From: Botryllus schlosseri
Taxonomy: Eukaryota
Length of the DNA: 64,000 nucleotides
Reading direction: 5' to 3'
Assembly: GCA_051294905.1 (NCBI GenBank)
Contig: CM119372.1
Location: 30,010,001 to 30,074,000, forward strand
Part shown: positions 10,926 through 64,000 of the stretch, in pieces
Layout: each line of letters starts with the position of its first letter
Position numbering within the stretch: the first letter of the stretch is position 1
Notes under the pieces: model-generated
Database searches by the model: none
Seen by the model: only the letters and a program-made list of their open reading frames with translations
Told to the model about the DNA's origin: nothing
Made by a program: the position numbers and the translations under genes

Positions 10926-12967
10926 CACTGTAAAAAATAAAAACCTCGATTTACCGCGAAATGTTTGGAAGCACGGTAGCCAGACATTTCGTGGTAATCT
11001 AACATTACCGTTAGTCAATGTAAATTTAACTTACACTCGTCCGGTAATCTCACTTTACACGCCAGACTGTAATGTTACAGTCACCTCCGGTATATCTAAT
11101 CTACATGTTCTCCTGTACATTTGCGATCGAGACTGTCATTTTACCGCCTACCTACCTACATGCTGTTCCTGTACATCAGGATTACATACCAGCTTGTAAA
11201 TTCACGTACATCCACACCTATCGCAAAGCAACCCGATGCAAAAATATCGCAACATTTTCTTCACATCCACAAAACGACATTGGAATAAACTGTATATTCA
11301 TTCATGATATCACGATGAAGTGGTTATCGATGGAAAAGTATTGCTGCTGGAGGTCTAATTCTTCTTTGGGAGACATGCAGTAACACGAGTGGTCTCAAGA
11401 AAACATGAATTAATTCCACCACCGGCCAAACTTCCAATTGTTTCTTTTTCTCGTTCTCATTCCTTCTGTGTAAGTAGTAGCTTGCAGTTCCACTAAAAAG
11501 AATTCGTGCGTAAGTAGCTATATAAAGCAAAGTTCCTAACCTGGACATGACATTATAACGACTAAGACAAATAGGCTAACAAAAATATAACATGTTTTGA
11601 AGTACCGGTACTGGCACATTGTGTGATGACGGCTCCGCCTTTCACATGACATAGCAGAGATTCATGACTTTATCTCTGTATTGAAGCAAAAGGTTCCTAA
11701 ATTAAGGTGGCATGTGTGGCAAACAAATCCAGCAGTGGATGAAAACATATCTATGCTATGGCCCGAAAATGACATTACCAAGCCAACAGTTTCAACTCCT
11801 CCGCAGCGGAGTATGTGGTCACTATATAAGTCGACAAATATCCCAAAATAGAACAGAGAATGCGGCGAATGAAATATATCAATCATGAAATCTAAGTCAT
11901 CGAGGGCTGGTGTGCAGAGTCAGATATTCACGGTAACAAATACTATGTAGTGCTGTATTACCTTTTAAGATGCGCATGCCATTCAGCATTCCTAGGAATC
12001 TTCAACGATCGTGTTCACTTTCTTCAAGCACAAGCTTCGCTCCACCCTTTGCTCAAATCTCACTAATGGCCACTGGCCAGACGACACTCGAACGATTTCG
12101 AAATAAATGGTATTCATCCGCTGACACATAACACCAATAATATTTACTGGCCACGTTATAATGTTTGATCTGGGTCGTTTTTTCCATACAGAAACATTTA
12201 TCATTGCATATAGTCCCTTTTTTCATCTAATTTCGTATAAATTGATGTATATTCCATGTGTTGTTCACTACTTACTGTACTTACCTAACCAGACGCTGCT
12301 TGTGATGTCACAGTTGTGCGTTGGTTGTTTACTACGAATCTCAGAAAAAGCAGTCACCTAATGTAACCTATTACAGGTCGCCCTGTCCGCCATTAACAAA
12401 TGGTTAGCTGAGCATGCGGTGCTGATATTTCTAGTTTCCCCGAGCAATATTATACATCCTGAACTAATTTTCTAACTTATCAGCCTTATCCGTGACAACG
12501 AATGTAACCAGCGAGACTGGCCGTACAGCCATTGCCTTATAATATCATATGGCTACGGTGTACCACATTAGCTACGATCGTCAGTTATTTCTTGTACCCT
12601 ACTAAGCTTAAATTGATATTAGGGCCAACAATTTCGGTATGACAGACCCCAGTCTCGCAAACGAGGTTCAATCAGGTCAAATCACCTCTATAGAATGATA
12701 TATCAGTAACATTCAGTTCTACGTATACATTGGCTGCAGCGATTTTGAAGCTAATCAATTTTGCCAATAGCCCGGTAAACTGCAGTAACGAGTAACTGTC
12801 AGTAATTTTGCGAAGAAATTCTGGTAACTTACTTTACAGCTATATTAAGGTAATATTACATATCAAAATGTAAAATGACAAGCTACGCACAGTAATTGGC
12901 TGCGACCGGTAATTTGTGGTAAAATTTACAGAGATTTCCCAGTAAATCTACCAGATTTTTTACAGTG
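10926..12967. mobile_element. EnSpm/CACTA-type (CMC) non-autonomous element
   Basis: 13-bp perfect TIR CACTGTAAAAAAT...ATTTTTTACAGTG; 2-bp TSD CA; TTACC/GGTAA subterminal repeats at both ends. Confidence 0.8.
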
Positions 12968-13323
12968 CACAAATATATTCATATCAATTCGAGACTATAT
13001 TACAGCGTGGGATTTCTTATCAAGTTTTCGTGTGGAGCACGAATTCTTATGTATCAATATAGGGTATCAATATATTCTGTTTTAAATTCCACCCTAATGC
13101 CAAAAACAAACTTCAATAAAATAAGAACGGAATATATTAGAATATGGGCACCCACATGAACCTACTACATACCAACAACGGGGCGTTACACTGAATTTAC
13201 CAACTTACCAACTCATATCGGGGTTTGGAGACGGCAACTAATTTTATGTTCACGTTTTTATAGTGAGACTTTAGCCTAAAAAGAAAGAAACTCTACCCTA
13301 TAACAAAATACTATAGGCTACAT

Positions 13324-13400
13324 CAGTGGTTGTCAACATTTTTTTAATCTTCGCGGACCCCTTTTGGACCTTCACCGACCCCCGTGGACTCCACATGTTT
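13324..13400. mobile_element. Solo end of the hAT family seen at 3260
   Basis: CAGTGGTTGTCAAC...CGCGGACCCTTTTGGACC...CCCCGTGGACTCC aligns with 3260-3330; no partner end found. Confidence 0.65.
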
Positions 13401-13936
13401 TTTATGCTTGTACAGCTCAACGAATACCCATCGGCCTGCTTACTACATTTTGAAGATTCTTTCCGCTATTGTGTATACAAGAATATATACTTCTCTTAGT
13501 AACCAATTTCTCGTGAATTCCGAACCACATTGACGTGTGTTAACTTCTGGTATTAGGTGATAATACCATTTTCATGTCTGATAATGCCACTTGTCAAGGT
13601 GATACAAACGTAAGCTCAAGCTACTTTAATGTTAATTCATTCAATTAGCTTGTGTTTATCATGAAATTACTTGGATTATGCTGAGTTTCGCTATTAAAAA
13701 ACACTGCAACATGATTGAGTTAATCAAACACAGCGCAAATAATTACAAATCACCTGCAGTAGGTATTCTTTTATGATATACGAAGGAGGATGACACGAAT
13801 ATCTTATAATACTCTAGTAATTCATTTATTTAGCTTGTGTTAATTATGAAATCACTTGGCTCATGCTGTAAATTACACTGCAACATGAAAAGTTATTATA
13901 TTTGATCTCATAAGTTAGAACTAAATTTGAACTCGT

Positions 13937-28717: not shown

Positions 28718-29677
28718 CTAACTCACAACTTGCAATGGTACGGAAGATGTCTTGTTGACTCTTGTCACCGCTGGTTGGTCTTTCACGATAAATGGAAACA
28801 TTGTTTTTCTCCATTTCGGAAATGCAGCAACAACCATGCACAAATTAACCATTGGGTTGAATTGACTCAAAGCAGCAGGGAAAAAACCATCTTTGACAAT
28901 TTTTGTCATAACAATGAGAGAGATGATGACATCCGTGCCAACGCAGACAGACGCACATACTAACGATCTAACGACCAGAGGCTTCAAGCTTTCTCCGCCA
29001 CTTTGGTTTTGTGAATTGTGTTTAATCAGGGGATATGCGAATAATCCAAGAAGTGAGAACTGTGTGACGGTGGCCATTATGATTCTTGGAAAATAAGCGA
29101 TCATCGGATTGAACCTTGCTGCGGTGATGGCGCATCCCGATTCCAGAACTTCCATCTCGTAAGCTGCTATGAAAAGAGCGAAGGAAGCGAATGGTGAAAT
29201 CACCGGCAGAATTCCGGAGATCCAACTCAAAAGGCGTAAAGTAGGAGTCGTCAAATGACTCATTGATGGTTTCAGGTAAAGCGATCTTTGCCTCATCCAC
29301 AGCACCACGTAAATGAACGAAGCTGCTGCATTGATTGACACGATTTTCAAGTACTTGACCGGGGCGCACCATTCATGAGCAAACATATCCACAGCAATAT
29401 CCTCCAGGACGGTCGCCACGAAGAACAGGGTTGTGCTTGCTGCACAAAGTACGGACAATATTTTGATGCGAATTTGAATCGAAGTCGCCTTTCTCACTGC
29501 AATCGGACAAATATAATCCTTCAGCAATGCCACGGTTATCCAACTTGACTGGATTAGGAACAATGCAGTTGTTGACGCAAAAAATATCCAGAATTTCCAC
29601 GACTTCACAACTTCTATTTTTGCAGATGTATTTGAAGAGGTGACGGGGGTGGATTCTAGGTTATATTCTCCAGACAT
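28718..29677 (-). CDS. Intronless seven-transmembrane GPCR-like protein, 319 aa (divergent, orphan)
   Basis: ATG-to-stop ORF with seven hydrophobic segments, N-terminal sequon NTS, Cys at the TM3 start (HEWCAP) and in ECL2 (ESGCAI), LWMRQR at the DRY position, Pro in TM5 (FAYP) and NP in TM7. Confidence 0.85.
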   Translation of the reverse strand: MSGEYNLESTPVTSSNTSAKIEVVKSWKFWIFFASTTALFLIQSSWITVALLKDYICPIAVRKATSIQIRIKILSVLCAASTTLFFVATVLEDIAVDMFAHEWCAPVKYLKIVSINAAASFIYVVLWMRQRSLYLKPSMSHLTTPTLRLLSWISGILPVISPFASFALFIAAYEMEVLESGCAITAARFNPMIAYFPRIIMATVTQFSLLGLFAYPLIKHNSQNQSGGESLKPLVVRSLVCASVCVGTDVIISLIVMTKIVKDGFFPAALSQFNPMVNLCMVVAAFPKWRKTMFPFIVKDQPAVTRVNKTSSVPLQVVS

Positions 29678-29697
29678 TTCTCAAATAATGATGTTTC

Positions 29698-35273: not shown

Positions 35274-36093
35274 CATTCAAATAAAAATGCGAACCGAATT
35301 AAATAAAATTCTTCAATTATAATTCTGCTAAAATCCCTACTTCCAGAGTTTGCAAATCCAAATTCATGCTCGTCTCCAATCGCCTGGTTGGGATAGTTGG
35401 GGTGACTCATGAATTATTATGATTCTAAGAAACGTCAAAGCGTAGGGTACTAGTATTATTATTGTTCTTGTTGCTGTTGTTTATTAAACAAAAAGTATTA
35501 TTGTGAATAATAATTCACGTCAATGACAGTGATCGGTATCGCCTATCTTAGACTATCACTACATTTGATGATGTCCAGCGTATTTGCGTTGGTGCGACTT
35601 CATGAAAGACTTCTCGTTCCCACGCATTGCCATTCTTTTTCTTTTTCTCCTTCACCGGTCCATGCTCACTTCTCTGCTGCCGAATTAAAGCACTCTGCTC
35701 TCTCTCCGTTGGGCTTTTCAATACTTGTACAGTACGATTTTGCGCAAGTTGTGATTTATAGAAACTTGATATGAAACCCGGATGATGAAAACAGATCTTA
35801 TCCAAGGCTTTGTAGTAAAACTCAGTGTTGGCGACTTCAACAAAATCAATAGCCTGAAAAAATTGACCCAGTGAAAATATAATTTTCGGCGGTCGAGCCT
35901 GAATATACGGTCAAATTAGAAAGGACTTCAAATTTAAACGACAGTGAAATAATCAAGCGATCTATTTACATATAGTGCGAAATATTTCCAGTAAAAAGTT
36001 TGGGTCTAGTATATAGTAAGCACCTGCAAAGAATCCGGTATCAGTGGGGAGCACGGGATTTAAGTTGTCTGGTGTTGCATTATGTGTTGATTT

Positions 36094-39000
36094 GTGTTTC
36101 ACGTGGGATGCGATTTGGCCGGGGCTCAAGTGACGTCACCAAATTCCTCTGCGCCCCGAACCCCCTCCCCTATCCTTATCAGCCGATTCCCGGTCCGTAG
36201 GCCAGTCACTGGGGCCTTACCTGCCGCCCGTGCCTGGCTTCGGACTGCCGGGGATAGCAGACAGTCCCTAGGCCGACGTACCACACCCCCAAAAATTGTG
36301 GTTTCCCCCCCAAGGGACTTTACTCCCTCCCCACCCCAAACGTTAGTGAAGAGACGTTTGACCCCTGTCTCTTCACCAAGCCCCATTCCATCGCTTTCGG
36401 AATTGTTTAAAGCACCTTTGCCTGGCAGCCCGAGCTCTACTCAAGAGCTCCTTGCCAAGTTGGACCGGGGAAGTCCCTTCCCCACCACACGCGATGACCT
36501 GAAACAGATATCGTCGGCGGGATCGAGTCCGAACACCGTAGACTCGCCTCCCGTCGGTCAGGGCATGTCTCCCTCGCGCCCACTTGCGGACGAGACATGT
36601 GCTGTGACGGCTGGATCAGCGGTCGAACGCTCCGAAGTTACCGGAGCTGTCGACGGCTGTGAAAGCCCGACGAGATTGCCTCCTTCGGTAAGTGCACGTG
36701 ACGAAATAGATGTCGACGTGCCTTCTCCCGAACCGAGCGCACCTCGTGCACAAGTCGATCTGCGCGAGTTGCGCTCGGAGCTTGCAGACTTGGTGTCAGA
36801 ATGTCCTCACAACATCGAGGCTTTCGGGCACCTTGAACGTGAGCTGGAGCTCTGGACTGACCGTGCCTCTGATTGCAGCCGCCCTCCCGGCCGTAAACGC
36901 CCTAGGAACCGATACTCGCGCGAAGCACAACGCCGTGCTAAGGTCAATCAATTGAATGGCCAGCGCGAGTGTCGACCTGGGGCAGCCCAACATCTTCGGT
37001 CCGCTTTCTGGCGCAATCAGAAGGAAACGGTCAGACAGATCATCGAGGATGATTCTGGCGGTAAACGGTGCGAAATTCCTGCCGACATAATCGAGCGGAA
37101 ATTTCGTGCTGACGCCGCCGCTGACGTCACTGATAATATTGCTGCTTTTCCTCGCTGGATGTCTCAGCACAGTTACCAGGGCAACCTGGCTTCTGCTGTT
37201 GACGACGAGTCGATTACTCCATCAGAGGTAGCAGGAGTGCTGGCGACCCTAAACACCAGTAGTTCGCCAGGCTCCGATGGTCTCACCTATGGATTTTGGA
37301 AACGCTTAGACCCCAAGGGAGAAATCCTCTCTGAGCTTTTCGAAGTCTGTAGGCGTTGCCGACGTATTCCACTTGTGTGGCGCTCGTCGCGGGTAATCCT
37401 GATTCCAAAGGACCGCGACGGCGACATGCAAGACGTCGGCAACTGGAGACCCATCGCGCTATCCAGGACGCTGTATAAGATCTACGCGTCCGTAATCGCT
37501 CGCCGTCTTCAGAGCTGGGCATCCGATGGAGATGTTGTCTCCATGGAACAAAAGGGGTTTGTTCCGCGAGAGGGGGTCTTCGAGCACGTGTTCATGCTTG
37601 AGTCCTTGCTTGCGGATGCCAAGTCGTCAAGGCAGGATATTTATCTTGCCTGGCTTGACATCCGCAATGCATTCGGTACCGTTCGGCATGGATCCGTGAT
37701 CGAGGTCCTGAAGCACTTTAACGCCCCGGAGTATCTGGTGGAGGTGATGACCGATATCTACGCGTCTAACGTGTTTGCAGTCGCGACCAGCTCTGGTCCG
37801 ACAGACCCCATTCCAGCGGGGAAGGGTGTCCGTCAAGGATGCCCTTTATCGGCCATCACCTTCAACCTGGTCATGGAGGTTCTCCTGCGTGGCGTTGCTG
37901 GGCTTCAAAGCAGCGGTTATCGGTTTTCTGCGGCGGATGGCGTCACTGTCAGAGTTCAGGGTTACGCAGATGACACCTGTCTGTGTGCTTCGTCTCGCGT
38001 CCAGCTTCAAGCACAATTAGATATGTGCGATGAATTTTCTCGGTGGTCTGGTATGAAGTTCAAGCCCGCCAAGTGTCGTGTTCTTGCCTTGGGATTCAAG
38101 GGAAGCCGATCGATCGTGGACTCGGCCCCGTTCTGCCTTGATGGTGGCGAGGTCCGGGTCCTCGATCGTGACTCTTTCTGGCGATACCTGGGCAAGAACA
38201 TGGGTTACCAGGCAACCGAGAAAGGTGGGAAGGCCCTTAAAACTTTCGAGGCCTATTGTGATAGACTTTTTCTGTCACATCTCACCTCATTTCAGAAGCT
38301 GCTCGCACTGAAGAGGTTCGTTATTCCAAGAATCCTTTTTCAGTTGAGAATCCGCAAGTTCTACCGAAGCGATCTGCGTCGCCTGGATGCGCGTATCCGC
38401 ACGTTGGTGAAGGCGGAATTCCGCCTCCCTAACAGAGCGTGTCAGCCCTTTTTCCATGCTGGGCTGACGACTGGCGGTCTGGGGATTCCCAACCTCTGCT
38501 GCGAAGCAGATGTGTTGAGGCTTTCCCAGGCCGCCAAAATGGTCAATTCCACTAACCCCTCTGTGCGGGCGGTTGCGCGTGGAAGGTTGGCGCTGGTCGT
38601 CCGGAGGGCTTGCCGAGTCCCAGAGGCGTCGGAGACCCTGACAGTCGAGTTTTTAAACTGCGTGAGTCTAACAGGGCACGATTCCAGGGCGTACGGAGAC
38701 GCCTACGGGCTTTGGACCGAGGTCCAACCCGTCGCTAGGCGTCTCGGTGCTCGCTGGTTCGTGACCGAAGACGGGCTCTATCAGTTGGCTCTAGGCGCCG
38801 ACTGTTGTCAGGATTTGGGTCGTCTTACCAAATTTCTTCACCTGAAGGTGAACCAACGTTGGAAGACACGGTGGATGGAGCTTCCCGACCAGGGCAAAAC
38901 TGTGGAGTGCCACAGCCGGTACGGGAGCTCCAATCGCTTCCTCCGGTCTTCCAACGTCCTGACGGCAGTCGAGCGTAGCTGGATGCTTAAGGCTCGACTG

Positions 39001-39612
39001 AATCTTCTGCCGCTCCGGTCGATCCGGGGTCGGTTTAGAAATCGTGTGGAGCCAAGTGTGGTCTGCTGCAAGTGCGGACAGCATACCGAGACCCTGCCCC
39101 ACGTACTGAACCACTGCCTGCCAGTGATGGATAGCATCACGAACAGGCACAATTCGGTACTTGGGGTGCTCCTGGACTGTATTCCAAGCTCTTCTTCTTT
39201 TTTCAGATGCGATGTGGACCGCGTTTGCGAGGAGCACGCCACATTGGCCAACAGGCGGCTGAGGCCCGACCTCATCCTAGCGGATCGTCGCCGGGTCTTA
39301 GTCATCGATGTGGTGTGCCCCTTCGAGAATGGGGTAGCCAGTATGGACGCTGCCGTTGCACTGAAACACGCAAAGTACAAGGACCTCTGTGAGTCTCTCC
39401 GCGTTGCCACGGCCAAGGTGGTGGAGATGCACACGTTCGCGGTCGGGTCCCTGGGGAGTTACCACCCTGGGAACCTGACCACCTTACGTGCGATGGGTGT
39501 TTCGGTCTTCGAGTCCAGACTGGTCTCCGAGCGAGCCGTGGTCGCTTCTCAGCGCAGCTCTCATCGTGTCTGGAAGGCTTGGTGTAGTGTGCGGGACCAC
39601 GAGAGGACTTGA
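36094..39612 (+). CDS. Reverse transcriptase - CCHC zinc knuckle - PD-(D/E)xK endonuclease polyprotein (first in-frame ATG at 36565)
   Basis: Motifs SPGSDG (region 0), NWRPIAL, QKGF, WLDIRNAFG, GVRQGCPLS, YADD, RYLG, GGLGIP, CKCG..ETLPHVLNHC, RHNSV, RPDLI, IDVVCPFE and KHAKYKDL; no stops or frameshifts over 1172 codons. Confidence 0.95.
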   Translation: MFHVGCDLAGAQVTSPNSSAPRTPSPILISRFPVRRPVTGALPAARAWLRTAGDSRQSLGRRTTPPKIVVSPPRDFTPSPPQTLVKRRLTPVSSPSPIPSLSELFKAPLPGSPSSTQELLAKLDRGSPFPTTRDDLKQISSAGSSPNTVDSPPVGQGMSPSRPLADETCAVTAGSAVERSEVTGAVDGCESPTRLPPSVSARDEIDVDVPSPEPSAPRAQVDLRELRSELADLVSECPHNIEAFGHLERELELWTDRASDCSRPPGRKRPRNRYSREAQRRAKVNQLNGQRECRPGAAQHLRSAFWRNQKETVRQIIEDDSGGKRCEIPADIIERKFRADAAADVTDNIAAFPRWMSQHSYQGNLASAVDDESITPSEVAGVLATLNTSSSPGSDGLTYGFWKRLDPKGEILSELFEVCRRCRRIPLVWRSSRVILIPKDRDGDMQDVGNWRPIALSRTLYKIYASVIARRLQSWASDGDVVSMEQKGFVPREGVFEHVFMLESLLADAKSSRQDIYLAWLDIRNAFGTVRHGSVIEVLKHFNAPEYLVEVMTDIYASNVFAVATSSGPTDPIPAGKGVRQGCPLSAITFNLVMEVLLRGVAGLQSSGYRFSAADGVTVRVQGYADDTCLCASSRVQLQAQLDMCDEFSRWSGMKFKPAKCRVLALGFKGSRSIVDSAPFCLDGGEVRVLDRDSFWRYLGKNMGYQATEKGGKALKTFEAYCDRLFLSHLTSFQKLLALKRFVIPRILFQLRIRKFYRSDLRRLDARIRTLVKAEFRLPNRACQPFFHAGLTTGGLGIPNLCCEADVLRLSQAAKMVNSTNPSVRAVARGRLALVVRRACRVPEASETLTVEFLNCVSLTGHDSRAYGDAYGLWTEVQPVARRLGARWFVTEDGLYQLALGADCCQDLGRLTKFLHLKVNQRWKTRWMELPDQGKTVECHSRYGSSNRFLRSSNVLTAVERSWMLKARLNLLPLRSIRGRFRNRVEPSVVCCKCGQHTETLPHVLNHCLPVMDSITNRHNSVLGVLLDCIPSSSSFFRCDVDRVCEEHATLANRRLRPDLILADRRRVLVIDVVCPFENGVASMDAAVALKHAKYKDLCESLRVATAKVVEMHTFAVGSLGSYHPGNLTTLRAMGVSVFESRLVSERAVVASQRSSHRVWKAWCSVRDHERT

Positions 39613-39686
39613 TCCCCCCCTTCACGTGCTTTTTATTTGTTATGTGTTTTGTGTTATTGGTTATTAGCTTAGTCCGCTAGCCATCA

Positions 39687-40012
39687 CGGGGTTCGACTGC
39701 AGGCAACTGGACACTGGATTGATTCACGGAACTCCTCCCCAAATTAACATAAATGGACCCCTGCTAGTTTTAGTTTTTTGAAGTTGTTTTTCCGAGCGGT
39801 TCTAAATGCTAAGGGGAGGAGTTCCCCCACCTCTCGACAAAAAGTTTGATTTGATTTTTCACCACCACAATTACTATGATAATGCCTGCAGTCGGACCTC
39901 GCCAGTTCGCCCCTTTATTTTTTATGTTGTTTGTCGGCCTCCACCACATATATTGTGTGTTTTTGGTGGAGGCCTTTGTTTGTTGGTGCCCCCCGTCCCC
40001 GGGCGAACTGGC
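39687..40012 (+). other. Structured RNA domain in the retrotransposon 3' UTR
   Basis: Helices 39688-39705/39883-39900 (18 bp, 2 G-U), 39728-39740/39813-39825 (13 bp perfect), 39901-39912/40001-40012 (12 bp perfect) and 39936-39946/39964-39974 (11 bp perfect). Confidence 0.8.
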
Positions 40013-41989
40013 CATGTCTTCTCTGGCCCATGTTAATTAATATCGCATTTCCATTTTGTGATTTTTCGCTATTTATTTTTCGTAAAATAAAATCTTTTTC
40101 CCCGCCACCGTAAATGGCGGGTATTGTTCTGCGTTTATGTTTATCCATTTTCGCAAGGTGACCGAAGTCGCGAATATATTTATTTCGTATTGCATTTTCA
40201 TTTTGTGGAAATTTGCAGAAATAAAATATTACAAACAAAAATATGTACTATATACGGAACAGATAAATTTAAGACCCGAGATAGGAGAGAAGGTGCATTG
40301 GTAATAAGCTGTCAAAAGAAGTTTATATGGGGCGGCTTTGAGTTTTGACCAATCACGAAGGAGATAATCACATACCTCTCCTCATAAGGGGCGTCAATCA
40401 GCCAAAACTGAAACGAGCTATTACATCACAAGAACTAGGTCAAGTAACTACAAAGCACCCGGGACAATGTAAAAGATCACAGGCTATCTATCTCAGGTAA
40501 GTGCCGACTTGAGTGCAGGGATTTCAGCGGGAGACACTTCTGGCGAGCTAATGATTGTGGGGATAAAAACCCGGACAATTCCAGCGGCTTCACATTACAC
40601 TGAACTGCCTCATATTATGGAAGACAACGATGAAATTAATTATACCGATCGTTTGCGCGCACATATGATAATGGAGAGATCATATAACGTAAGGCGAACA
40701 AATTTATAACCGTCATACTAAGTGGGATTTCAATAATAATAATATTTGTGTGCGTGCATTGTTATCGCAAGCATAAGTCCGCCTTCTCCGCAAGATATTT
40801 GCGAGTGATATTAGTGCGTAATTATGCGAGAATGTGGGGCACAATAATTTCATTTCGCAGGAGGTCAGCGGTGAATATAATCATCATCATCATTGATTTA
40901 TTAGCAATTTTTATCGGTTCAATGCACCGCGGAAATGTGATACAATGAAAAGATAACATTTTTTGCGCTTCTCGCGATTTACCATGACGTATAGTTACTC
41001 GATTTTGCGAAACCCACGAAAATATATACGGCAACCTAATATCGTATGAAACTGTTTTGATACTTTAGTCTAGGAGGGTGCACTGTGCAGCCTGTGGGAC
41101 CGCGAATATTTTATATGGACCAGCATCTTTGTGCTTGGCAATTTCACGTTAAGATACGCACGTTTCGGGCAAAGTGCGACAGCTGCGTGTGCTGTATGCG
41201 TTGCCGAATGATTGGCGGCGATAGAGCATCGAAATATAATAACCACCGCATCTTGGCCTAAACTAAACGTTCGACATTGATATGTCCAGGCGCCGAAATC
41301 AGGGGTATATAGAGTTCTATAATTCCCTGGCCGAAATGACCGACGCGAATAGTCTAGTGCCCGCAGCTTCAGCCGCACGTCTCGAATGAGATCCACACAA
41401 ATAATGAGTCCCGTGTCGAAATGCGAATTTGAAATTGGGTTCGTCTCACAAAAAGGATATATTATTTTAGTTTCGCCTGATACGTGCAAGCAATTCCGAT
41501 ATGTCTGGAGCAAAGACAACCTTTACCGCTATACCGCGATCTTTGGAGCTTTGCAGACAAATCTAGCGTCAGACCAATAGTAACATCAAACCAACTTGCA
41601 TGGTATAGGGGTTGAGACATTTTTTATCATCAGGCCATCTCTTCATAACATCTTTGATCGGCCTGTCGCTTATTGGCTATGGTACCGAACACAGTAGCCT
41701 TGGAAACGATCAAGGTAACCACTGAAGATCGACCATTACGCGACTAAATTTAAAGGATGCACAATTGCACAATGCACATATTACGTACATTAGACGGTAG
41801 GTCTAGTGCGGTAAGGACCAAAATTTATACCTTTCACGGCCAATACTGTAAGAATCACTGACGTAACCAATGCCGTTACCAGCTGCAGATAGGTGGTCCG
41901 TGTGATTCCTTACTTGAAACATTGAATATCACAAAATAAAATGGTTGGCACGCAAGTTGGTAATATTTTACATTGTTTGATATTTTGGC

Positions 41990-42290
41990 ATGCTGCATAC
42001 GAAAGGTTGCCGGCACCTGGACTGGTGATTATTTAGTGGTGATTGCTTGTGTTTCGACTTGGGCGGGGGCATGCTCGTCGGCTGTCGGATGGCCTGCGGG
42101 ATGCTATTCCGCACGTCAGGTCCGGCATGTTTGATGGAGCGATGATCTTTTCGGTCGATCATGTGATGTTTGGGCGGCGTGGACGCGCGTGTGTTGTGCT
42201 TGTGCGCTTTTGATTCCGAGGTGGAAGGGGTCATTGAAGTGTTCGTGGCAGTGACCGCAGTGGAAGAACAATTATGAGTGTGAACAATAT
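41990..42290 (-). mobile_element. 3' fragment of a CR1/L2-group LINE ORF2, T>C hypermutated on the coding strand
   Basis: HKHNTR...RSIKHAGPDVRNSIPQAIR...PKSKHKQSPLNNH corresponds to the common C-terminal pattern HxYNTR...SIxYxGPxxWNSIP..IR....FK..YK..LL..Y. Confidence 0.75.
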
Positions 42291-42439
42291 GAGCCGATGG
42301 AATTTATCGGCCAATACGAATATTGTTCACCAACTTGTGCAAATTCTAGAATAACGGCTAGACTTGAAAATATTGGGGTAATTTAGCACAGAAATCACGC
42401 AAGCAATAATCGCGTGTCGATAATCTTTTGTTTTCTAGT

Positions 42440-42650
42440 TTGCTCGCTACTGGCGATCGTTATAAATAATTGATGAATATTCCGTTCGCGGTGACGATCG
42501 TAAGCTTCGTCGTGCTGCAAAACTGTAATATCCGAATTCCCCAATATGCGCTGCAGGATGGGCTGTTATTTTTCGCTTGCTACTGTCGGATCGCTATAAA
42601 TAATTAATGAATATACTGCTCACAGTGATGATCGTGATTTTCGTTGTATT
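42440..42650. repeat. Two imperfect copies of a ~75-bp unit about 135 bp apart
   Basis: GCTACTG..GATCG.TATAAATAATT.ATGAATAT...GTGA.GATCGT occurs at ~42445 and ~42578. Confidence 0.65.
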
Positions 42651-43585
42651 TGAGGCCTTTACACGGAGTACGAATTATATAATTCCCAAATTGCTGGAGG
42701 ATATTAATTCTACGATTATTACCGGCCCATATGATAGTACAACAAGAGAAGAATCAAGTTCGGTTAATAACTAGATACAGTGCATCTCCACAAACAGGGG
42801 AATTATTATGGCGTCTTTACGCCAAATACGACTCATGTTGCACCATACCATGGTATCATGCGCACTAAAACCACATGGGGCCTAGGATCTGATGTGTAAG
42901 TTTGTATAAATGCAAACTACTCACCTGTGCCCAATAACACAAGTCAATAATGCCCAAAATAGGTTTCTACGAGGGCGAGATTATTCCATCAATGGAATGA
43001 GGCTTGAATTTCAGTGATCCAAACGCTTGAAAAACGGGTCATAGCAGCGTCAGATATGCGATCCGCAGAATGATTTAATCCAATGCGTGAATCAGGTTTG
43101 AGTATTATAAAATGTTTACACAATTCGACGTAGTTTTTTACAAATACTGATATCTTGAATCCAAAATACCCCTAAAAGACAGCAATATGTTGAGCATATT
43201 CGTGGCTAATACCCATCCAACAGCGATAAACGGTTTCTCTCTAGTATAAGAGATAAATCAGTAACAAAGAGCGGCGGCGAACGACATGGATTTCATAATA
43301 TAGTATACAGCGTTATTTATGTGGTCATGCTTCTGTAATACTCCTGGCTCGCATGCATTTGAACCTTCAGTGTTCCTCACAGAGCATGTTACGATTGGCT
43401 GAAACTATATTACGATCTAGGAAAAAATCACTGCCTTGTATCTTTTGTCAGGACCGTTGTTTTAGCGGAAGCAATAACTATATTTCCCTGGCAAATCGTC
43501 GTATTGTGTGCAGGTTCTATTGTTTGCGCATAAACTTATAATATATAATGGGGCTCGAGAAAGTAGCCAGAACCTTACGCTAGAC

Positions 43586-44030
43586 CGGGTGTGGGCAATT
43601 ATTTTCCATCGCGGGCCAAATCTGAAGCGGCAAAAACGTTGGTGGGCCGCAACAAAAGTCCAGACTATGGTCCGCGGCGTGCAGTTTCATCTCTAAATTG
43701 AAAACAGAATTATATTGTTAACACATGTCGCGAAGTGGATACTTAAATATTGGGCTGCGTCCCCAGAGCTCTGTGTGGCTTGGTAAAGTAGCCTTGCTCT
43801 TTTGCTAAGCTTCGGTAGCAGGTGCGCATCAGCCGCTGGTATGTATTCACTGCATGATTTGTTATCATAATGCCGACTCAAATTATATTCGTTGAGCTCT
43901 GAGACCTGCTCCATGCCCACTACAAACCACCGCAGCTTTCATTGCTTATCATAACATGGTTTGTGAACGAGGACTGATCCACTTGATTACCGATTTGGAA
44001 ACATATCCCTTCTCAAATTAAAAACCATTC
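43586..44030 (-). mobile_element. Deleted SPIN/Charlie (GTF2IRD2-like) hAT remnant
   Basis: End CGGGTGTGGGCAA...CGCGGGCCAAA preceded by an nnnTAnnn site (cgctagac); minus-strand EQVSELNEYNLSRHYDNK resembles the N-terminal KEYNLRRHYETKH zinc-finger motif. The other end was not located. Confidence 0.65.
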
Positions 44031-46899
44031 TTACAATGCGTAATGTTACAATGACAACCAGAAGGTTTAAACTGAACTATATGGAAAGAGTGAATTCTTG
44101 TGACTCCAAGGCTGCTCAAACTTCGCCAAATACATTGACTTTATTTTGAGTCTTAATTGCGCGTGCCAAGTACGTGGACAGCATAATCTTGGCATATTAA
44201 TGAACATGCTCCAAGGTGAACTAGTTTCATGTTTAAGTAATAGTCTTTGATTTAGTCGTATAAAAATTCAGCCATGTCTGAGCCATCCCTGCGGTTTCCG
44301 CAAGGGTATTGGTGGACAGATGTCGTGGTCCGAACAGATGTTGATTTTCCCATACTCTACTCCTAAGGGACCAGAATCATTGCCATCTGTTAGGTGAGGT
44401 AATTACTTGCAGCATCAAGAATGGGGGATGTGCATTAAAAACCGGGTACAGTTGAAATGTAACATTTTATAACACGGTGAATCCGGTAGGTTTTTTCCGG
44501 AGCGTAAACTCGCTTAGTCATCAGTCCATTGTATAATGCGAGCATGGCACACCCTCTAAAAGTCTTCGTACACACTATGGTATACGGGACATCCGGTTGG
44601 GTGCCCGCGCTAATACAATTGATCCCCCATGGCATATAGGGTAATGGTAGCCCAATTAGGAAACTTTTCGGACAGCGGTCTGTCTGTCTAGTACTCAGGT
44701 CACTAAAGGGTTTCTCGTCCACTTCTTACTTGCCATCCGACGGGCGAGTCCGCATTCAGGTCGAGATACGAGCGGTTACTACTGGATAAATACAGTCCAT
44801 CTTCAAGACTACCGGACTACGACTGACCTATCGAATCGATCTCGTTTCCCATGACACGCCGAACTATTAGTTATATTCAGTGTACACTGTGCATGCGTCC
44901 TCTCTACATCGCCTAGGCCGAGTTGCTTGTAAGCCAATGATGACCAGAAGTGGTCAGTAACGAATTGTCTCCACTTATGGAAAAATTTGAAGAGGATTTT
45001 GCCTGTTTATACTGCCTTTCAAGTAAGTATGATTTGGGAATACTTCTACTGCTTGACAGTCGGTTTTATAGGCAAGAGTAAGCGTACAATAACTACTTTC
45101 TTTGGTCACCACTCCTATTTCTACTTGAGTAGAAATTCCGGCTTCACTTCTACTTGAGTAGCGACTGTGACTACCTTGACCATCTCTGCATCTCACTCGT
45201 TGGTCGTGGTACCACGAAAGACCTCGGAGATGTGTAAACTGACCTCAAAAAATCACACAATGCCGACAAAAATCATCATTATAAGGAATTCAGCAAGCAT
45301 TATTAAAGAAACACCTTTGGTGACATCACATTCTAAATGCTGCTCCCCGTGAACCATGCGTTAAAATTCTGGCGATGTATCTGTTACAACGACGGGAATT
45401 ACACGTCTAATATGATAACCAATTCATTAACTCGACGGTAGTTGAAAGCTGTGGGGTGGGGGGCAAACTATATTGACAGATGTGTTGGTTCTACTTTCGA
45501 GTGATCTGTTGCTGCATGCAAATGGAGGATCTCGGGAATATAATAAATAGCGGGTGCAATGGGGCTTAATGTGCAAAATACTTTGCGACTCAAATAGTGA
45601 AAACTACGTTAAAAGGAATTCTTAGGAGCGGAATTATTGTTACTTGATGTAAAAAAAAACAAAAACAAAACTCATTAGATAGCTCGATCTCAGTGTTACA
45701 ATTACATTAACACCACTAAAAGCCTTTCAGAGGAGCTTCCAGATGCCAGGGAGTGATTAATAATTCAGATGCGCCCTAAGACTTATGTCGGAAATCTGTT
45801 GAGGCTTTTTGCCAAATGACAAGTATGATCAATAATCCAGAAGCAGACCAAAATTTATGACAGATTTCCATTAATGGCAATTTGTCGGACATCCATTACC
45901 GATTAATTATTCATAGAAAATCCAAAAATAAAACAAGGAAGCCTTGCCCTTACACAAATAAAAGGAATAATTGATTTGATATCTGATTTGAAAAACTCCA
46001 TATAAAACCCGACATTGGCACTGTCAAAATCACAACACTTGGGTATCTACGGAAGAAGGAGGGAAGTCGAGATAGCAATACAAGGCTAATAAGATGTTAG
46101 GGGGAGATTATGCCCGACATTAGAATCGGAGTCAGAAAACTAAAATGTATAGGTAGAGGGTACTTATGCATACTGACGTGTTGAAGGGGGGTCTTTGATG
46201 CATAAAGTATATCATTAGTGGATATTGCGAATACGGAAATGGGGTAAAGCTGCCAACTAAATCTTACATTGGGAATAGTCTAGCTAAGAAATAGAAAGAG
46301 GGGCCCTGCACGGTGGGAACTGTACCTACCTTGTGTGTGGTTTGGAATAAACGTCACTCCCTCTTAGTGAAGGCGTTTATGACCAATTGGGTTTTATTGT
46401 TACACCACTTACATGATGATTATTGGAGTACACAGGCTTTAGCACTTGACAAAATATTTCTCAAGTAGGCCAGGGCTTTTCCGCCACAGACGATAACACC
46501 GAAAGGATATCTCTAATAATCCCCCTCCTCTACGGAACTTGTCACTGTCTAGGGTCCACGAATGTCTATGATAAAGGCCCGACAACATACCCGCGTATAT
46601 TATACCAATTTATATTGCGACCGACTTCTTCTCAGGACATCACTTACACGGACAAAGCAACGTTTATGATCTGGCGCCAAAAGCTAACTCGTTTCATCAG
46701 TAAAATGGGCGATCATTTAGTATATATCATGGACGGGCAACATACGGTCCACGATTGAATTCTGAACGCCCCTTAAGCAGATTCCGGCCTTGCATGATAT
46801 AGTGTGGCCCACGGCCACAGTCTAACTTTATCTACGTCACACAGACTTGTACAAGCTACTGAATTTGCAGGGAGCACAACTAGAATTGTTAAATTTTCA

Positions 46900-57813: not shown

Positions 57814-58903
57814 CAGTGGCGGCTCGTGACAATATCGGGTGGTGGGGCAAGGGCTGCAAGCGACTTTTTATCAAGATGACGTCACAGTGGCGTTTTTCAA
57901 CGTAAACAAGTAACTTGGTGGTACGGTAACTCGAACGACAACAGTGATTTTAACGTATGTGCCGCGAGAGGTCTGCTGGTGAGCTGTGACTTAAAGTGTG
58001 GTAACTGCGTTAACGGCGTGCGGAACAAAGATTCGACACGATTCATGTTCGCGCTAAACCTGACTAATTATCTGCAGGAATGGAAATGGCTATAACTCGA
58101 GAGATTGCGTAAGCCTAACTGGAAAGGTCAACGAGTTCGGACACATACGCAATTGTTATCTCATAGATTGGACATGTCATATTGAATACAAAACATCATT
58201 CGGAAGAACTACGGATAGCAGCCTCGGAATTCGGTGCCGGTGCAGCATAGGATATTTTGGCCTTGAGGCCGGAGACGGTCACACGGCACATACGGCATAC
58301 GGTCTAGTGTCTAACTGTCTATATGTCTGCTGCAAAATCGCCTTTGGAAAATATATTACCAAATAAATACGTGATTGAAAGCCGAAAACTTGGTACACCG
58401 TTAGATGAAATCATCGCGAAGTAACCTCATGACCGTTTTCGATATGGTACACTGTCAAAATTAATACGAACACACCAACACCGAATTTTGCGTGAAATTT
58501 ACTGAGGAATAGGCTGATCAAGCGAGCAGCTGTTAGCCGCCATCGAAAACGAAACAGCTATCGAGCTTGACAGGGGTTATAATTGTAAAAAATGGCCTGA
58601 AGGCCACAATTTCACGGTGAAATTGACATTGAAGAATATAAAATATAACTAAATAGTTGAATGCAAACCGAGGATGTTAGTAAACTGCTTCATGATATCA
58701 TCATCTCATCAACTATCTCAGTATGGAACACAGTTAGCCTTAACACAGATACACCGGCTTTTGCATGAAATCCGCAATGCGTTAGGTAGGCTAAGTGTCA
58801 GATCAGCGCACATCTCTACCATTGGGCTCGAAAGTCACGTGACTTCTGGTTCGCTGGGGCCAAACAACTATCTTAGATAGCCGCTGCCTGTGTTAATTTG
58901 CGA

Positions 58904-59618: not shown

Positions 59619-60453
59619 ATTTGCGATATTGGTCTGTTTTTAAATCGTATTTTCTGTCTCAGTGAGTTTGTTTGAAGTACAGTTCTGGGTTTTATGTCAT
59701 CTTCTATGACTTATTAGCTAGTTTCAGGACTTTTAGATACTAACTAGGTAGGATTATGTTGTTTTGCAGCTGCGCAAAATGCCAAGGCATAACGTGCCAA
59801 TTTGTTATAATGGATGAGAAAACAATTCAGAGTAGTCGTTCCATCGACTTCTGAATTGCCAGAAAACGACAGGAAAGTGACCGAAATTAATAAAGCTAGT
59901 GAGAATGATAAATATAATTAACATTTGAACTATGTTGACTTGTTTGTTTGGTGGTATCAAATGTCATACCGGTATCTCGTGTGCCCCAAGACAGCGTAAT
60001 CGAGTCAGCTTCAATAGCAAATGATTTAAGATAAGCCACAATTATTAGATTTTTTAAAAGTGTTTATGGAGTGAAAGTGGCCTAAGAATAGATGCATCAA
60101 CTGCAGGCATCGGTTAGCTTTTAAGATATCTGTGCCATTTATCGAAAAAGATAATCAAGAATTTCGGTCAGCCAAATTTATATTCAACCATGCCAATCAG
60201 AAGGAAGTTATTGATTGTTTCAAGGATAGTGCTGAGAAGACTGCTATTGCCGGACAAGGACAAGAGTACCGTACTTTCGACTTGGTTTTTTTGATGATGC
60301 AGCGATTTACAATTTGGTATCATTCTAACTGGAATGTAAATATTCTTTTAATGGGAGACCAGGTCTTGCTGTTACTCATGACACTACTTCCTATAATTTA
60401 GTACTGGCACTGTTGCCAATGTTTTTCTAAATTTTGGTCAAGTTTCTATACAT

Positions 60454-60800
60454 CAGTGTTGTTCAAAAATAACTTTTTTTCCGAATTTCACTGGCTCATG
60501 AACAAAATTGTTAGGTGGCTTGATAAAAGGTTGCACACTAGATTTGGCTCAATTCCAACATGCAGAAGTGAAGCTATCAGATTTAAAAAAAAATTGAATT
60601 TATTGAAAAAATAAAATAGTTTTATTAAATTTTACTGGCTATGCCATGAAATTGTTGAGTTTCAAAAAATGTTTAGCAAATTTGGCTAGTTGAGCCAAAT
60701 TAAAAATTTTCTACTTTCAGTAGCTTTTGCATTGCTCTATACAAAATTTACACAAATTTCTTGAACAAAAATCAGAGGGTAATTCATAACTATTTTATTC
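60454..60800. mobile_element. Single diverged arm related to the foldback MITE family
   Basis: TTCAAAAATAACTTTTTT...ACTGGCT...AAAATTGTTA...CACAC...ATTTGGCTCAATTCCAAC aligns with 49859-49955. Confidence 0.65.
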
Positions 60801-62334
60801 TCTTTATAGATACTTTTAGATGTTTAACAAATCAATGCAAACATTGATGCTAGCCTCACTAATCTGTACCTGATTGCTGTGCTAGTGAAGTTGCACTGTG
60901 CGCTATATGTAAACCATATCCGGGGCATCTCTGATCCCGGCATCTTGTATGATGCAATTGGTATCTCTGCCAAAAACTGCTCTCCAGAAGACACCATCTC
61001 CTTCATCGCAAGAACGAGAAGCACACGCACGCTATTTACCCCTTGAACTGTGAGAAAATGCAGCTCAACTGTCTATGGAATGACGTCACCGTAGGGAGGT
61101 GGAGCGACACACTTCAAGACGCTACCGGCCTTAAAAGTCGGGACCACATATACTTCCTGAACTTGTAGAAATCCACCCAAAACGCTGGGAAGGAACTGAC
61201 ATTGTTGTCGACATATGGTACATCAATGCCACCAGTAGGTCATTTGTGAGACCAGCCTCGTAACCATACGGACCCAACAACACTGGTATCCCTTACCGTC
61301 GTTCTCAGGGTCAGAGCACCGTGAATTTACACAAACGCCGTTCAGGATCTTGGCTTGTCAATGGAAGATACTTACGTCGTCGCGATGCAGAAACGCAATA
61401 ACTACAGATTGCCATGGAGTACTCACAGTTACACTGCTTGCTGTTATTCTCGTCAATTTCGATATACCAACACTGTCCTATCAATTGTATTGCTTATGAC
61501 TGCCCATTTTCAAGCCAACTCTGTGTGTTTAAGTGAGTCGTCAGTTTAAGACTACCTCCACAGTAGCAGTGTATAGCTTAAGTCAAAACTGCATCCGTTT
61601 ATGGCAAGTTGGCAACATTAATCAGGAATACCTAATCTGTGACCAATACCTACATTCTATTTGTTTCATTCTCGGTGCAAAGGAAATACATTCTCAAGTT
61701 GTGAATTTGTCGAATTTATTGGCCAGTTATTGATTTCGTCAGCACTCTTAGAATTTTGTAAAATCAAGCGAGAGTATGCAACTATGCAAGATTAAGAAAG
61801 TATTGTTGTGGAAATATTATTATATCAGAATTAGGTAGTTCTTCTATTCAGAATCTCGAGGGAATTGACGGGTCCAAAACGAAGAAATGGCATAAGTTTT
61901 GAGTATGCAATGCACAAGCTGCCCTGCACTTGTCAAAGTACTTGTGATGCTGGCAAGTACTATAGTATCACCGACTCATTTCAAAATGAAGACTTTCTTC
62001 TAAACGCTCAAGTCTATTAATGATCTTGATTTGGTAGAATAGGGACACTTGATATCTGTCAATACACACATTACAAAAGTGCCGCAAACATGTCCTAAAA
62101 CTACTTTAAAAAATATAACACTCCGGCAAGTATGCAATATTACATAGTACTCTGAAAAGGTGGAAATACTATCTTCTTTACTTTCATTCAGTGTGCATGC
62201 CTCCTCTTTACATCGCCTAGGTCAAGATGGGTGTCTGATTCCATAGACTAGTCCAAGTCGCTTCGACATCTTCCTGTCTTTTCATTGTATCGCATTTTGT
62301 GGTGTATTGAACTGATAAAATTTCTAATAAACCA

Positions 62335-62650
62335 ATGATGATGATGATGATCGTCTGTTTGCACCACGACATAAATGCTTTAAAGTTCAAGGGTCTCTTT
62401 GCTTTTTGATAAGCTTTTTCTTTCTTTCATCTCTTGCTTGCTTCCATACGTCCTCGTCAGTGGTGCCGATTTTCGAGCCTCATCGGCTTTACTTAGCCAT
62501 CTGGGCTTGATTACATGACGCTGCTCATGTAGTTAGGTAAGCAGTGGGGAGTCCAGATAAGCCTCCAACCCACTTGCGTCAAGTGGGATTCGAACTCAAT
62601 TCCAACGCTTCCCCAATCTTTCAGGTAATTTTGCAGTTACCCACCTCTAC
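62335..62650 (-). mobile_element. Putative tRNA-derived SINE with an (ATC)n tail
   Basis: Minus-strand B-box-like GAGTTCGAATCCCAC (~62583-62597); 3' end ATGTCGTGGTGCAAACAGACG(ATC)n; a similar tail sequence occurs on + at ~44320. Confidence 0.55.
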
Positions 62651-64000
62651 GTCATAAACTTTCATTATACTCATGGCTGAACTGAATATTTCCCAATTCT
62701 TTGCCATCACCACCATACATTGCTGATATTGGATGGTCGTTGTCTAAATCATTTTGACTTCTTTTGACCAGATTCGGATTATTTTTGAAGAACTCGCAAA
62801 TCGTAAAAGTAGCCTAACCCAATCCATCTGAAATCAAATTTAACACGGTACGGTAATGTTACAATATTAATAATCTCCGATGTTGACTGATCACTGTCTC
62901 CGTGTCGATAAGTATATACTTGATGCATAATAATGCTGCAGCCATACGATGAATAGTTAGTAGGTCCAGATGAAAGTACTAAACCTTGGAATTACTTGTT
63001 TGAAATAGGCTATCTTAAACTGCTCTATACTCCATCATGTTAATTGAATACTATACATTGTCATCTATCTGCACGAAAAAAAATCAATCCTGTAACACAA
63101 ACACATAATGTGACAGCAAAGACCAGCGCAGTAGCAGAAATTGCGACACACAAATGCATTACTGTCGCAGAGAAGATGATACCAGAAACGCGCTTGGCCC
63201 CAGACGGTGGTTGCTATGCTGAAAAGTCACGTGACTTTCGAGCCCAATACTCGACCTTGATAACGAAATTGCTGCCCGAATCATTGAGTACCAACCTTGA
63301 GACTTGGCACAGCGTTCGATACTAAAATAAAGATACCATGCAAAAGCTCATGACGGATCTAGCTAAGGAGCATCGTTAAAATCAATGGAGACCAATACCG
63401 GCTTTTGCGTAAAATCTGTTTGCGATACATGACGGATCAGCACACACTCAACTTCGGAATCGGATTTACTACCCTAAACTTTGAGTAGAAACCCTAAAAC
63501 TTAGGACAGTGTTAAATACCACCATCACGACATGACATACCAAGTTTCAAAAATTATCATGGAGTGAAACACCATCAAAATCAAACTATACCAGCAAAGA
63601 TCGACTCAACGCATATGACGGTAACCGAGTTCAGATATAGATACGATTGTTACATCACACCTTAAGGGCAACTAGGCTATGTTGCCCCGGCTGCTCGGTA
63701 ATTTTATGAATAGGAGAGAGTAAATCACCGTTTCTTTATTGTGCGCGACGTTGAGAGAATAGACAGTGAAAGCTTGTTATGAGCGCTACCGGGGCATGCC
63801 CCGGCTAGGCATTCGCAAAGCGATAACACGCTCTGATTTCGGTATATATAGATTGCTGTGCGTCTATAAATGGTAAAGAATTGTTATTAAACAGAATTTT
63901 AGGTGGGGCAATGCCCCAGTTGCCCTATAGGACGAGCCGCCACTGATCAATATTAGAAATAGCATATGTTGAAGAAATTGCTGAGAATCTGATGGTCATA

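Follow-up and report, generated by a model that had tools for sequence, protein, structure and literature searches.

An ADAR-like A-to-G burst on the antisense strand of a LINE copy in the germline DNA of Botryllus schlosseri

Changes made by RNA editing do not normally pass into heredity. ADARs, which hyper-edit long double-stranded RNA (dsRNA), prefer U or A as the 5′ neighbour of the edited A and show a depletion of upstream G; a large share of the A's in a tract is changed, on one strand per molecule and in repeats that are able to pair (PMC5663115). A-to-G clusters in proviruses of bovine leukemia virus (BLV) were ascribed to ADAR1 and reached DNA through reverse transcription of edited RNA, with human T-lymphotropic virus 2 (HTLV-2) and simian T-lymphotropic virus 3 (STLV-3) cited alongside (PMC8025556). 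G>A signatures of APOBEC deaminases are frozen in inherited retrotransposon copies of mammals (PMC4866542, PMC2873906). Full-length ADAR2 deaminates the DNA strand of long matched DNA/RNA hybrids (PMC5389660), and dense A:T>G:C hypermutation of integrated viral DNA, with T before A, is described for the chlorarachniophyte Bigelowiella natans (bioRxiv 10.64898/2026.01.13.699255). Statements on cited sources hold, here and below, for the parts of each source that were covered. In this work we describe a copy of a long interspersed nuclear element (LINE) in a 64,000-nucleotide stretch of the genome of Botryllus schlosseri (assembly GCA_051294905.1, contig CM119372.1, positions 30,010,001 to 30,074,000 of the forward strand; hereafter the window, to which all simple positions refer). 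The strand antisense to this element carries a dense and one-sided burst of A>G changes that is fixed in DNA and shared by nine copies of the locus.

The burst resembles ADAR hyper-editing of long dsRNA in the large share of A's changed within a tract, the restriction to one strand, the presence of pairable repeats, and the favouring of A after U or A and its avoidance after G; unlike hyper-editing, it is a mark in germline DNA, known from DNA alone, and lacks an enrichment of downstream G (PMC5663115). With the BLV proviruses it has ADAR-type clusters in DNA in common. Those clusters are somatic, span windows of ~70 bp, and concern a retrovirus, on its sense strand, the strand of the genomic RNA (PMC8025556), whereas here the antisense strand of a non-long-terminal-repeat element is affected over ~300 bp or more, and the change was inherited and amplified to nine copies. 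Like the APOBEC fossils it is a deaminase signature frozen in an inherited retroelement copy, but it consists of A>G changes, is found in a non-mammalian animal and lies on the strand complementary to the element RNA (PMC4866542, PMC2873906). The position of the A>G changes on the strand complementary to the LINE RNA and the same order of neighbours recall ADAR action on DNA/RNA hybrids, the type of substrate that the intermediate of LINE insertion represents; that action is an in vitro and guided-editing result, unlike the heritable mark seen here (PMC5389660). The B. natans hypermutation is also dense and directed at foreign or repeated DNA, but is restricted to TpA and hits both strands (bioRxiv 10.64898/2026.01.13.699255), whereas here the changes are confined to a single strand and lie outside TpA at about half of the sites. 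In the titles and abstracts searched, together with passages of the papers cited here, an ADAR-type burst on the antisense strand of a LINE copy was not reported. Unusual features of the present case are the edited strand, which is complementary to the element RNA, the internal unedited insert, the partner arm edited in matching zones, and the later amplification. Knisbacher and Levanon (2015) reportedly dealt with DNA and RNA editing of mammalian retrotransposons.

The segment stands out by composition in a window with 40.3% G+C, the assembly searched comprising 496 Mb. The plus strand between 42041 and 42240 contains 24 A, 76 G, 62 T, and 38 C by exact count, and the 24 A's are preceded by G (15), C (6), A (2), or T (1). 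When 6,380 sliding 200-nt windows were ranked, the five lowest in A and the five highest in G all began between 42001 and 42061. The original prediction, made from the letters of the sequence, had drawn attention to 41990-42290; its hand counts for 42041-42240 (24 A and 76 G, with 15 A's after G and 6 after C) were reproduced exactly, and its span was narrowed, as the LINE-derived part comprises 42020-42265 and the stretch 41990-42019 is the end of another repeat. A composition scan of 363,930 bases revealed no other A-poor/G-rich or T-poor/C-rich 200-nt tract beyond the paralogs of the locus and one G-rich tandem repeat. The latter, at L042 2690-3300 and L025 2180-2450 with units of approximately GGTGATTCGCC, is a satellite and not a hypermutated copy.

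A family search with 41960-42320 as query returned 2,228 candidates, of which 40 were scored. These best 40 consisted of the window itself and eight copies with 93-96% identity over the whole query including the flanks, hereafter the paralogs, and of 31 copies with 87-88% identity that were restricted to query positions 59-306 or 70-306. Judged by sequence, the 87-88% group is a young and abundant LINE, and 10 of 21 fetched family copies were mutually identical across the block. The minus strand of the fragment contains a 111-codon open frame for which a Pfam search found no family, and the LINE identity rests on the family copies instead: in two of them a frame of 590 codons, still open at the locus edge, gave an RVT_1 match (E = 6.7e-35), its C-terminal end reading ...KYNTRASTSSKYHMIDRKDHRSIKYAGPDVWNSIPPAIRQSTSMSTFKSKYKQLLLNKY.... 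This bears out the initial assignment of the fragment to the 3′ coding end of a LINE; its further assignment to the CR1/L2 type is putative, and an Atlas look-up for the LINE reverse transcriptase (RT) gave only RVT_1 clusters without names. Where the natural family copy L019 encodes KYNTR, IKYAGPDVWNSIP, and STFKSKYKQLLLNKY, the minus strand of the window encodes KHNTR, IKHAGPDVRNSIP, and PPPKSKHKQSPLNNH. The Y>H, W>R, F>P, and L>P exchanges that had been proposed without a reference sequence were thus right by comparison with the L019 frame.

The LINE copy, named copy 1, is in two pieces (Table 1). The LINE's 3′-terminal 69 nt are matched by 40885-40953 with the orientation of 42020-42265, and since the stretch 40880-40953 also carries the element's own 3′ tail, both pieces belong to a single 5′-truncated LINE insertion that was later split by an unrelated repeat, TE-X. 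About 195 nt of the LINE were lost at the TE-X insertion point. The search for a target duplication of copy 1 yielded no more than a short AT-rich match between GAATA(T)AAT to its left and GAATAATTAT to its right, by which a duplication of GAATA is weakly suggested. By its sequence, copy 1 has the shape of an ordinary LINE insertion from sense RNA and is nested in a larger mobile repeat, termed the host repeat.

Table 1. Features of the window, shared A>G sites of copy 1, and A_deamin loci of the assembly
Feature	Position	Strand	Remarks
LINE copy 1, 3′-end piece of the open reading frame (ORF)	42020..42265	-	246 bp; 5′-truncated at 42265 inside the ORF
LINE copy 1, 3′-terminal piece with (ATG)n tail	40880..40953	-	Tail seen as ATC repeats on the plus strand, 40880-40893
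Shared plus-strand A>G sites, first half	42038, 42041, 42051, 42062, 42063, 42069, 42081, 42103, 42111, 42115, 42129, 42136	+	
Shared plus-strand A>G sites, second half	42163, 42168, 42174, 42177, 42198, 42224, 42228, 42229, 42239, 42241, 42251	+	
TE-X, unrelated repeat inside LINE copy 1	40955..42019	+ (guess)	1,065 bp; 814 candidate copies
LINE piece 2, inverted relative to copy 1	44727..44990	+	LINE sense on plus strand; internal deletion
Sharp left terminus of the host repeat (GGGTCAAGTATAC...)	35995..36131	.	Terminus at 35995-36002, common to nine copies
Low-copy core between the LINE pieces	42266..44637	.	Nine copies, 91-97% identity
Young LINE of another family	36131..40241 (element)	+	In the window's copy of the host repeat only
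A_deamin locus	G000 C10:21717227-21718759		dsrm and A_deamin in one 588-aa frame; apparently single exon
A_deamin locus	C13:1903842-1907972		dsrm match upstream of A_deamin
A_deamin locus	C3:27548592-27561352		dsrm match upstream of A_deamin
A_deamin locus	C16:6218422-6220962		A_deamin match

Substitutions were determined with L019 as natural reference in a gapped alignment with 21 family copies and the eight paralogs, and a change was called shared when it was present in at least five of the nine copies (window and eight paralogs). In the 246-bp piece the window differed from L019 by 29 substitutions, namely 23 A>G, one T>C, one G>A, one C>T, and three transversions, and the eight paralogs contained 21 to 24 A>G changes each. 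The shared changes comprised 23 of 53 A's (A>G), 2 of 73 T's (T>C), 1 of 67 G's (G>A), and 1 of 43 C's (C>T), an asymmetry with p = 1e-8 in Fisher's test. Thus, 43% of the plus-strand A's were converted to G in the 246-bp piece. The corresponding value for the 69-bp piece was 18% (five A>G among seven substitutions, with 28 A sites). No such A>G bias was present in the 21 ordinary family copies. The proposal of T>C changes on the LINE sense strand, equivalent to A>G on the antisense strand, is borne out by this spectrum, and the balanced mix of substitution types without neighbour bias that was to be checked for is not what the locus contains, as 23 of the 29 substitutions are A>G. APOBEC-type or RIP (repeat-induced point mutation)-type cytosine deamination was considered separately and ruled out by the shared G>A (1/67) and C>T (1/43) counts.

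The A>G changes also depended on the 5′ neighbour in the unedited sequence. Conversion was found at 11 of 13 TA, 4 of 9 AA, 2 of 10 CA, and 6 of 21 GA sites. The difference between 5′ T or A and 5′ C or G was significant (p = 0.004), and for G alone p was 0.096. The ADAR-like neighbour bias suspected at the outset is therefore real, with the order TA > AA > GA, CA. Among the 13 TpA steps, 11 had become TpG and none CpA, and the two unchanged steps both lie within 10 nt of a border; 12 of the 23 A>G changes fall outside TpA. CpG decay as another source of transitions was ruled out, as just 2 of the 23 sites are preceded by C.

TE-X serves as an internal control for the extent of the burst. It has a sharp end, ...GCCGGC(A/C)CCTG, and its left end is truncated relative to five of eight other copies. 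Compared with these eight copies, the insert in the window showed A>G at 14 of 261, T>C at 7 of 254, G>A at 19 of 200, and C>T at 12 of 202 sites, together with 30 transversions, a spectrum no different from those of other TE-X copies taken in turn. The right flank of the LINE block is A-rich, with many TA and AA. Since TE-X is unaffected and the right flank has kept its A's, the burst keeps to the borders of the LINE-derived sequence. One paralog (L009, C1:33249809) has no counterpart of window positions 40688-41978, that is, of most of TE-X and the sequence upstream of it, and retains the last 41 nt of TE-X together with the edited block; this gap is a secondary deletion.

A strand-biased process at the DNA level, either an error-prone repair patch of the kind made by polymerase eta (WA>WG) or a repeat-directed TpA mutator like that of B. 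natans, would share with the locus the preference for A after T or A. TpA-directed A:T>G:C change on foreign DNA does exist in that chlorarachniophyte, but it hits both strands and TpA only, whereas here 0 of 13 TpA steps became CpA and 12 of 23 changes are not at TpA (bioRxiv 10.64898/2026.01.13.699255). A repair patch would be expected to ignore the LINE borders and would not skip an insert of 1,065 bp. The density of changes also exceeds the known error rates of polymerase eta by an order of magnitude, and we regard a process of this kind as highly improbable.

The direction of the changes was deduced from copies that are older than, or distant from, the reference; this check used 24 sites from a BLAST alignment instead of the 23 of the gapped alignment. 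The older, frameshifted copy L025b has retained A at 21 of 24 burst sites and the divergent copy L014 at 18 of 23, and A is also present at 7 of 7 sites in the second LINE piece of the window (piece 2, see below) and at 6 of 6 in the paralog of this piece. In a distant LINE on L014 the YTR motif contains the Y that is replaced by H in the window. The A state encodes an intact ORF, and with G at the sites conserved codons for Y, W, and F are lost. The possibility raised beforehand, that the family consensus already holds the G's, is thus answered by the reference and the older copies, which keep A. An explanation without any special process, in which an older LINE subfamily already had G or in which chance or an assembly artefact created the pattern, could call on LINE positions 1597, 1618, and 1656, which are G in some of L010, L014, and L025b, so that 2 to 4 sites have G in some family copies. 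It is contradicted by the A's at 18 to 21 of the 23 to 24 sites in older and divergent copies, by the breakage of Y, W, and F codons in an otherwise intact ORF, by the strand asymmetry (p = 1e-8), and by the presence of the edited version in nine paralogous copies on seven contigs and in contigs from three samples. This explanation is largely refuted and, in our view, barely credible.

The burst sites are common to all nine copies, which are spread over seven contigs. Later variants in the block among the nine copies numbered 39 and consisted of 1 A>G, 8 T>C, 9 G>A, 5 C>T, and 16 transversions. Shared sites combined with an unbiased later variation indicate a single burst that took place before the amplification. 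The edited version was also recovered at ≥95% identity in sample contigs covering 41980-42162 (X6, 7 differences), 42044-42166 (X5, 6 differences), and 42152-42276 (X2, 5 differences); these runs represent three samples, whose reads do not separate the nine copies. None of the 40 differences listed (of 71) fell on the 23 sites, and those at 42028, 42064, and 42066 correspond to letters of the paralogs. The edited sequence is hence fixed in DNA, as had been claimed, by the testimony of nine paralogous copies and of contigs from three samples.

A second piece of the same LINE, piece 2, lies inverted downstream of copy 1. It is present in the window and in only one paralog (on C2, 230 kb away) and absent from seven of the nine copies. 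In the window, piece 2 showed plus-strand A>G changes at 10 of 26 A's in LINE positions 1501-1600, which are retained in copy 1 and complementary to it, versus 1 of 22 in positions 1306-1500, the part that copy 1 has lost (p = 0.006). In the paralog, 11 of 44 A's were changed in positions 1230-1305 and 1501-1600 versus 1 of 32 in the remainder (p = 0.011). The occurrence of A>G in piece 2 only where it is complementary to retained parts of copy 1 points to a duplex. Aligned as arms, copy 1 and piece 2 form 48 Watson-Crick and 16 G.U pairs in 74 columns; an inverted-repeat search of 40200-46000 reported none, the two LINE arms being 65% identical at the DNA level. Gene conversion between the LINE arms was ruled out as the source of the changes in piece 2, as it predicts T>C and not A>G on the plus strand. 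Judging from piece 2, duplexes with antisense sequence of the copy-1 type marked DNA more than once.

Hypermutation by the LINE RT at insertion, in which low dATP and high dGTP would lead to the repeated placing of dG opposite template U and hence to U>C on the sense and A>G on the antisense strand, would agree with the strand affected, with changes confined to the LINE copy, and with a single event. Retroviral RT supplied with biased deoxynucleotide pools in vitro is known from the 1990s literature to generate U>C hypermutants. However, changes at 43% of the sites, and at 85% of those in TpA, are far above what is known of RT error in vivo, the 21 ordinary family copies show no such bias, and the sense-strand A>G changes of piece 2 with their restriction to zones would be left unexplained. 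We therefore consider RT error very unlikely.

The unit in which copy 1 is nested was aligned in nine copies from 35995-36002 to past 57800, interrupted by copy-specific insertions. The flank outside the left terminus differs in each copy, and this sharp common end with a different flank per copy identifies the host repeat as mobile and as longer than 14 kb. Distances between the copies vary by segment, giving mosaic relationships that suggest recombination or template switching. Two forms exist at 44637-45854. A 1.2-kb segment that includes the inverted LINE piece occurs in the window and in one paralog, and six copies have an unrelated segment of 1,171 bp with 94-100% mutual identity (e.g., positions 12675-13845 of the C15 copy). 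One copy ends at the junction of the two forms. Four weak relatives of the host repeat were found, at C15:3754464, C1:16824098, C13:18601259, and C11:5626872.

The pattern was probably produced by an adenosine deaminase acting on a duplex, as the type, density, strandedness, context, and confinement of the changes match ADAR hyper-editing of a long, perfect duplex (PMC5663115). An ADAR-type deaminase would have acted once on such a duplex, one strand of which corresponded in polarity to the plus strand of the window and was antisense to the LINE, and the result would have become heritable in DNA before the host repeat multiplied. The animal has ADAR-type genes, as indicated by the dsrm and A_deamin domain matches at the loci listed in Table 1. 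As the likeliest route into DNA, we tentatively suggest that transcription of the host repeat gave a plus-strand RNA with the LINE in antisense orientation. This RNA would have paired with the sense RNA of the abundant LINE and, at a later stage and only in the two copies containing piece 2, with this inverted piece 2.5 kb downstream. The paired host transcript would have been hyper-edited, and the edited RNA would have been reverse transcribed into DNA as the host repeat made new copies. This complete route, in which host-repeat RNA was edited and then reverse transcribed, is possible but open to real doubt; it would lead to copy-specific A>G subsets in piece 2 that are limited to the zones pairing with copy 1. 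RNA of the LINE family is present in RNA run X23. The original prediction had envisaged another path, in which RNA antisense to the LINE was edited, reverse transcribed, and integrated as a fragment. This does not suit a copy that ends in the LINE (ATG)n tail at 40880-40893, is 5′-truncated, and sits inside a repeat of more than 14 kb.

Several observations weigh against a deaminase acting on RNA of the host repeat. G as 3′ neighbour was not enriched at edited sites (3 of 23 edited versus 6 of 30 unedited sites). From the family comparison, 2 to 4 of the 23 to 24 sites are polymorphic in the family and may have been inherited rather than edited. Piece 2 of the window lacks the preference for 5′ T, with changes at 1 of 6 TA, 4 of 9 AA, 4 of 8 CA, and 1 of 3 GA sites. 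A simple hairpin between the two pieces is disfavoured by the fact that only two zone-I sites are common to the window (10 sites) and the paralog (5 sites). Moreover, copy 1 is edited up to LINE position ~1731 and piece 2 reaches only ~1590; since editing extends past piece 2 and seven of the nine copies are without this piece, the main burst is not explained by a hairpin, and pairing in trans has to be assumed for it. No RT or other Pfam family was found at threshold in the 20 ORFs scanned among the 32 host-repeat ORFs of ≥75 aa (40241-64000), which gave one sub-threshold match, and the left terminus was not repeated, in direct or inverted orientation, in the window or in 20 kb of the eight other copies. 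A unit of more than 14 kb is also long for an RNA intermediate. In run X23, of which ~6% was read, 33 reads touched the block, solely at 42054-42261, and all of them continued into unedited family sequence; a transcript of the locus itself was not seen, with 0 reads on the low-copy flanks, a sample of the run that has no bearing on the expression of the locus. Finally, the evidence comes from one locus.

In an alternative with the same chemistry, an adenosine deaminase, ADAR or another, would have hit dA on the DNA side of an RNA:DNA hybrid. In the case of copy 1, antisense cDNA of the first strand would still have been paired with LINE RNA while target-primed insertion was under way, and in the case of piece 2, plus-strand DNA would have formed an R-loop with antisense LINE RNA from copy 1. 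Reverse transcription of edited RNA would then be unnecessary. Copy 1 resembles a normal sense-RNA insertion in its (ATG)n tail, its 5′ truncation, and the possible GAATA duplication, and the first-strand cDNA of such an insertion has exactly the polarity that bears the A>G changes, which fill the LINE copy and halt at its borders. The neighbour order reported for DNA (TAG 94%, AAG 81%, CAC 53%, AAT 43%, GAA 27%, GAC 19%) resembles the order TA > AA > CA, GA seen here (PMC5389660). Matched hybrids are, however, less good substrates than dsRNA (PMC5389660), and for them a conversion of 43% of the A's is high. A process in situ would also explain why the sites in piece 2 are mostly different between the two copies (2 of 10 and 2 of 5 zone-I sites shared). 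Against this stands the need for two different hybrid settings for the two LINE pieces, and the titles and abstracts searched, together with passages of the papers cited, contained no report of a heritable ADAR footprint on DNA. To our knowledge, no such footprint is known in any organism. Deamination of a hybrid is on balance rather unlikely as the source of the pattern, and we regard as distinctly unlikely the reading in which ADAR, or a different adenosine deaminase, left its natural and heritable footprint on DNA, first in a cDNA hybrid and then in an R-loop. Beyond this alternative and the editing of host-repeat RNA, a small share of our confidence in a deaminase is left for other ways in which edits could reach DNA.

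Further elements were noticed in the window. The window's copy contains a young LINE of another family (Table 1) with an intact ORF of 1173 codons at 36091-39612 (+), which includes RVT_1 and a C-terminal Cys/His motif. At least nine further copies share 96-97% identity over the same 4.1 kb, and on this sequence evidence the element is probably active. No recognised ORF or RNA family was found in the core at 42266-44637, and an Rfam search of 35500-46500 gave no family. Within the core, 42455-42775 (+) contains two tandem units, each with TATAAATAATT(G/A)ATGAATAT and, behind it, a short ORF of hydrophobic character; the two ORFs comprise 45 and 56 codons and begin with MNIPFAVTIVSFVV and MNILLTVMIVIFVV, respectively. 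These units are kept in all nine copies and resemble duplicated promoters with first exons encoding signal peptides. A 3.6-kb repeat at 59619-63250, with many copies at 96-99% identity, is a very young element, and a stretch of ~85 nt at 58819-58903 adjoins it in many copies with 95-100% identity. A 320-codon open frame with several hydrophobic stretches at 28718-29680 (-) is possibly an exon of a membrane protein.

Cases with an ADAR-type signature in germline DNA show that RNA editing is able to switch off a copy of a retroelement and to be a source of sequence change for genomes. A role in transposon defence, raised in the original prediction, is conjectural. The locus described here is a clean case, with a natural unedited reference, nine paralogs by which the event is dated, an insert as internal control, and a partner arm that was edited where it can pair. 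It is also a test bed for the way in which edits enter DNA, by reverse transcription of antisense transcripts or by deamination of RNA:DNA hybrids. If deamination of DNA were the true reading, RNA:DNA hybrids of retrotransposons would be a germline target of adenine deamination, the adenine counterpart of the editing of retroviral cDNA by APOBEC3.

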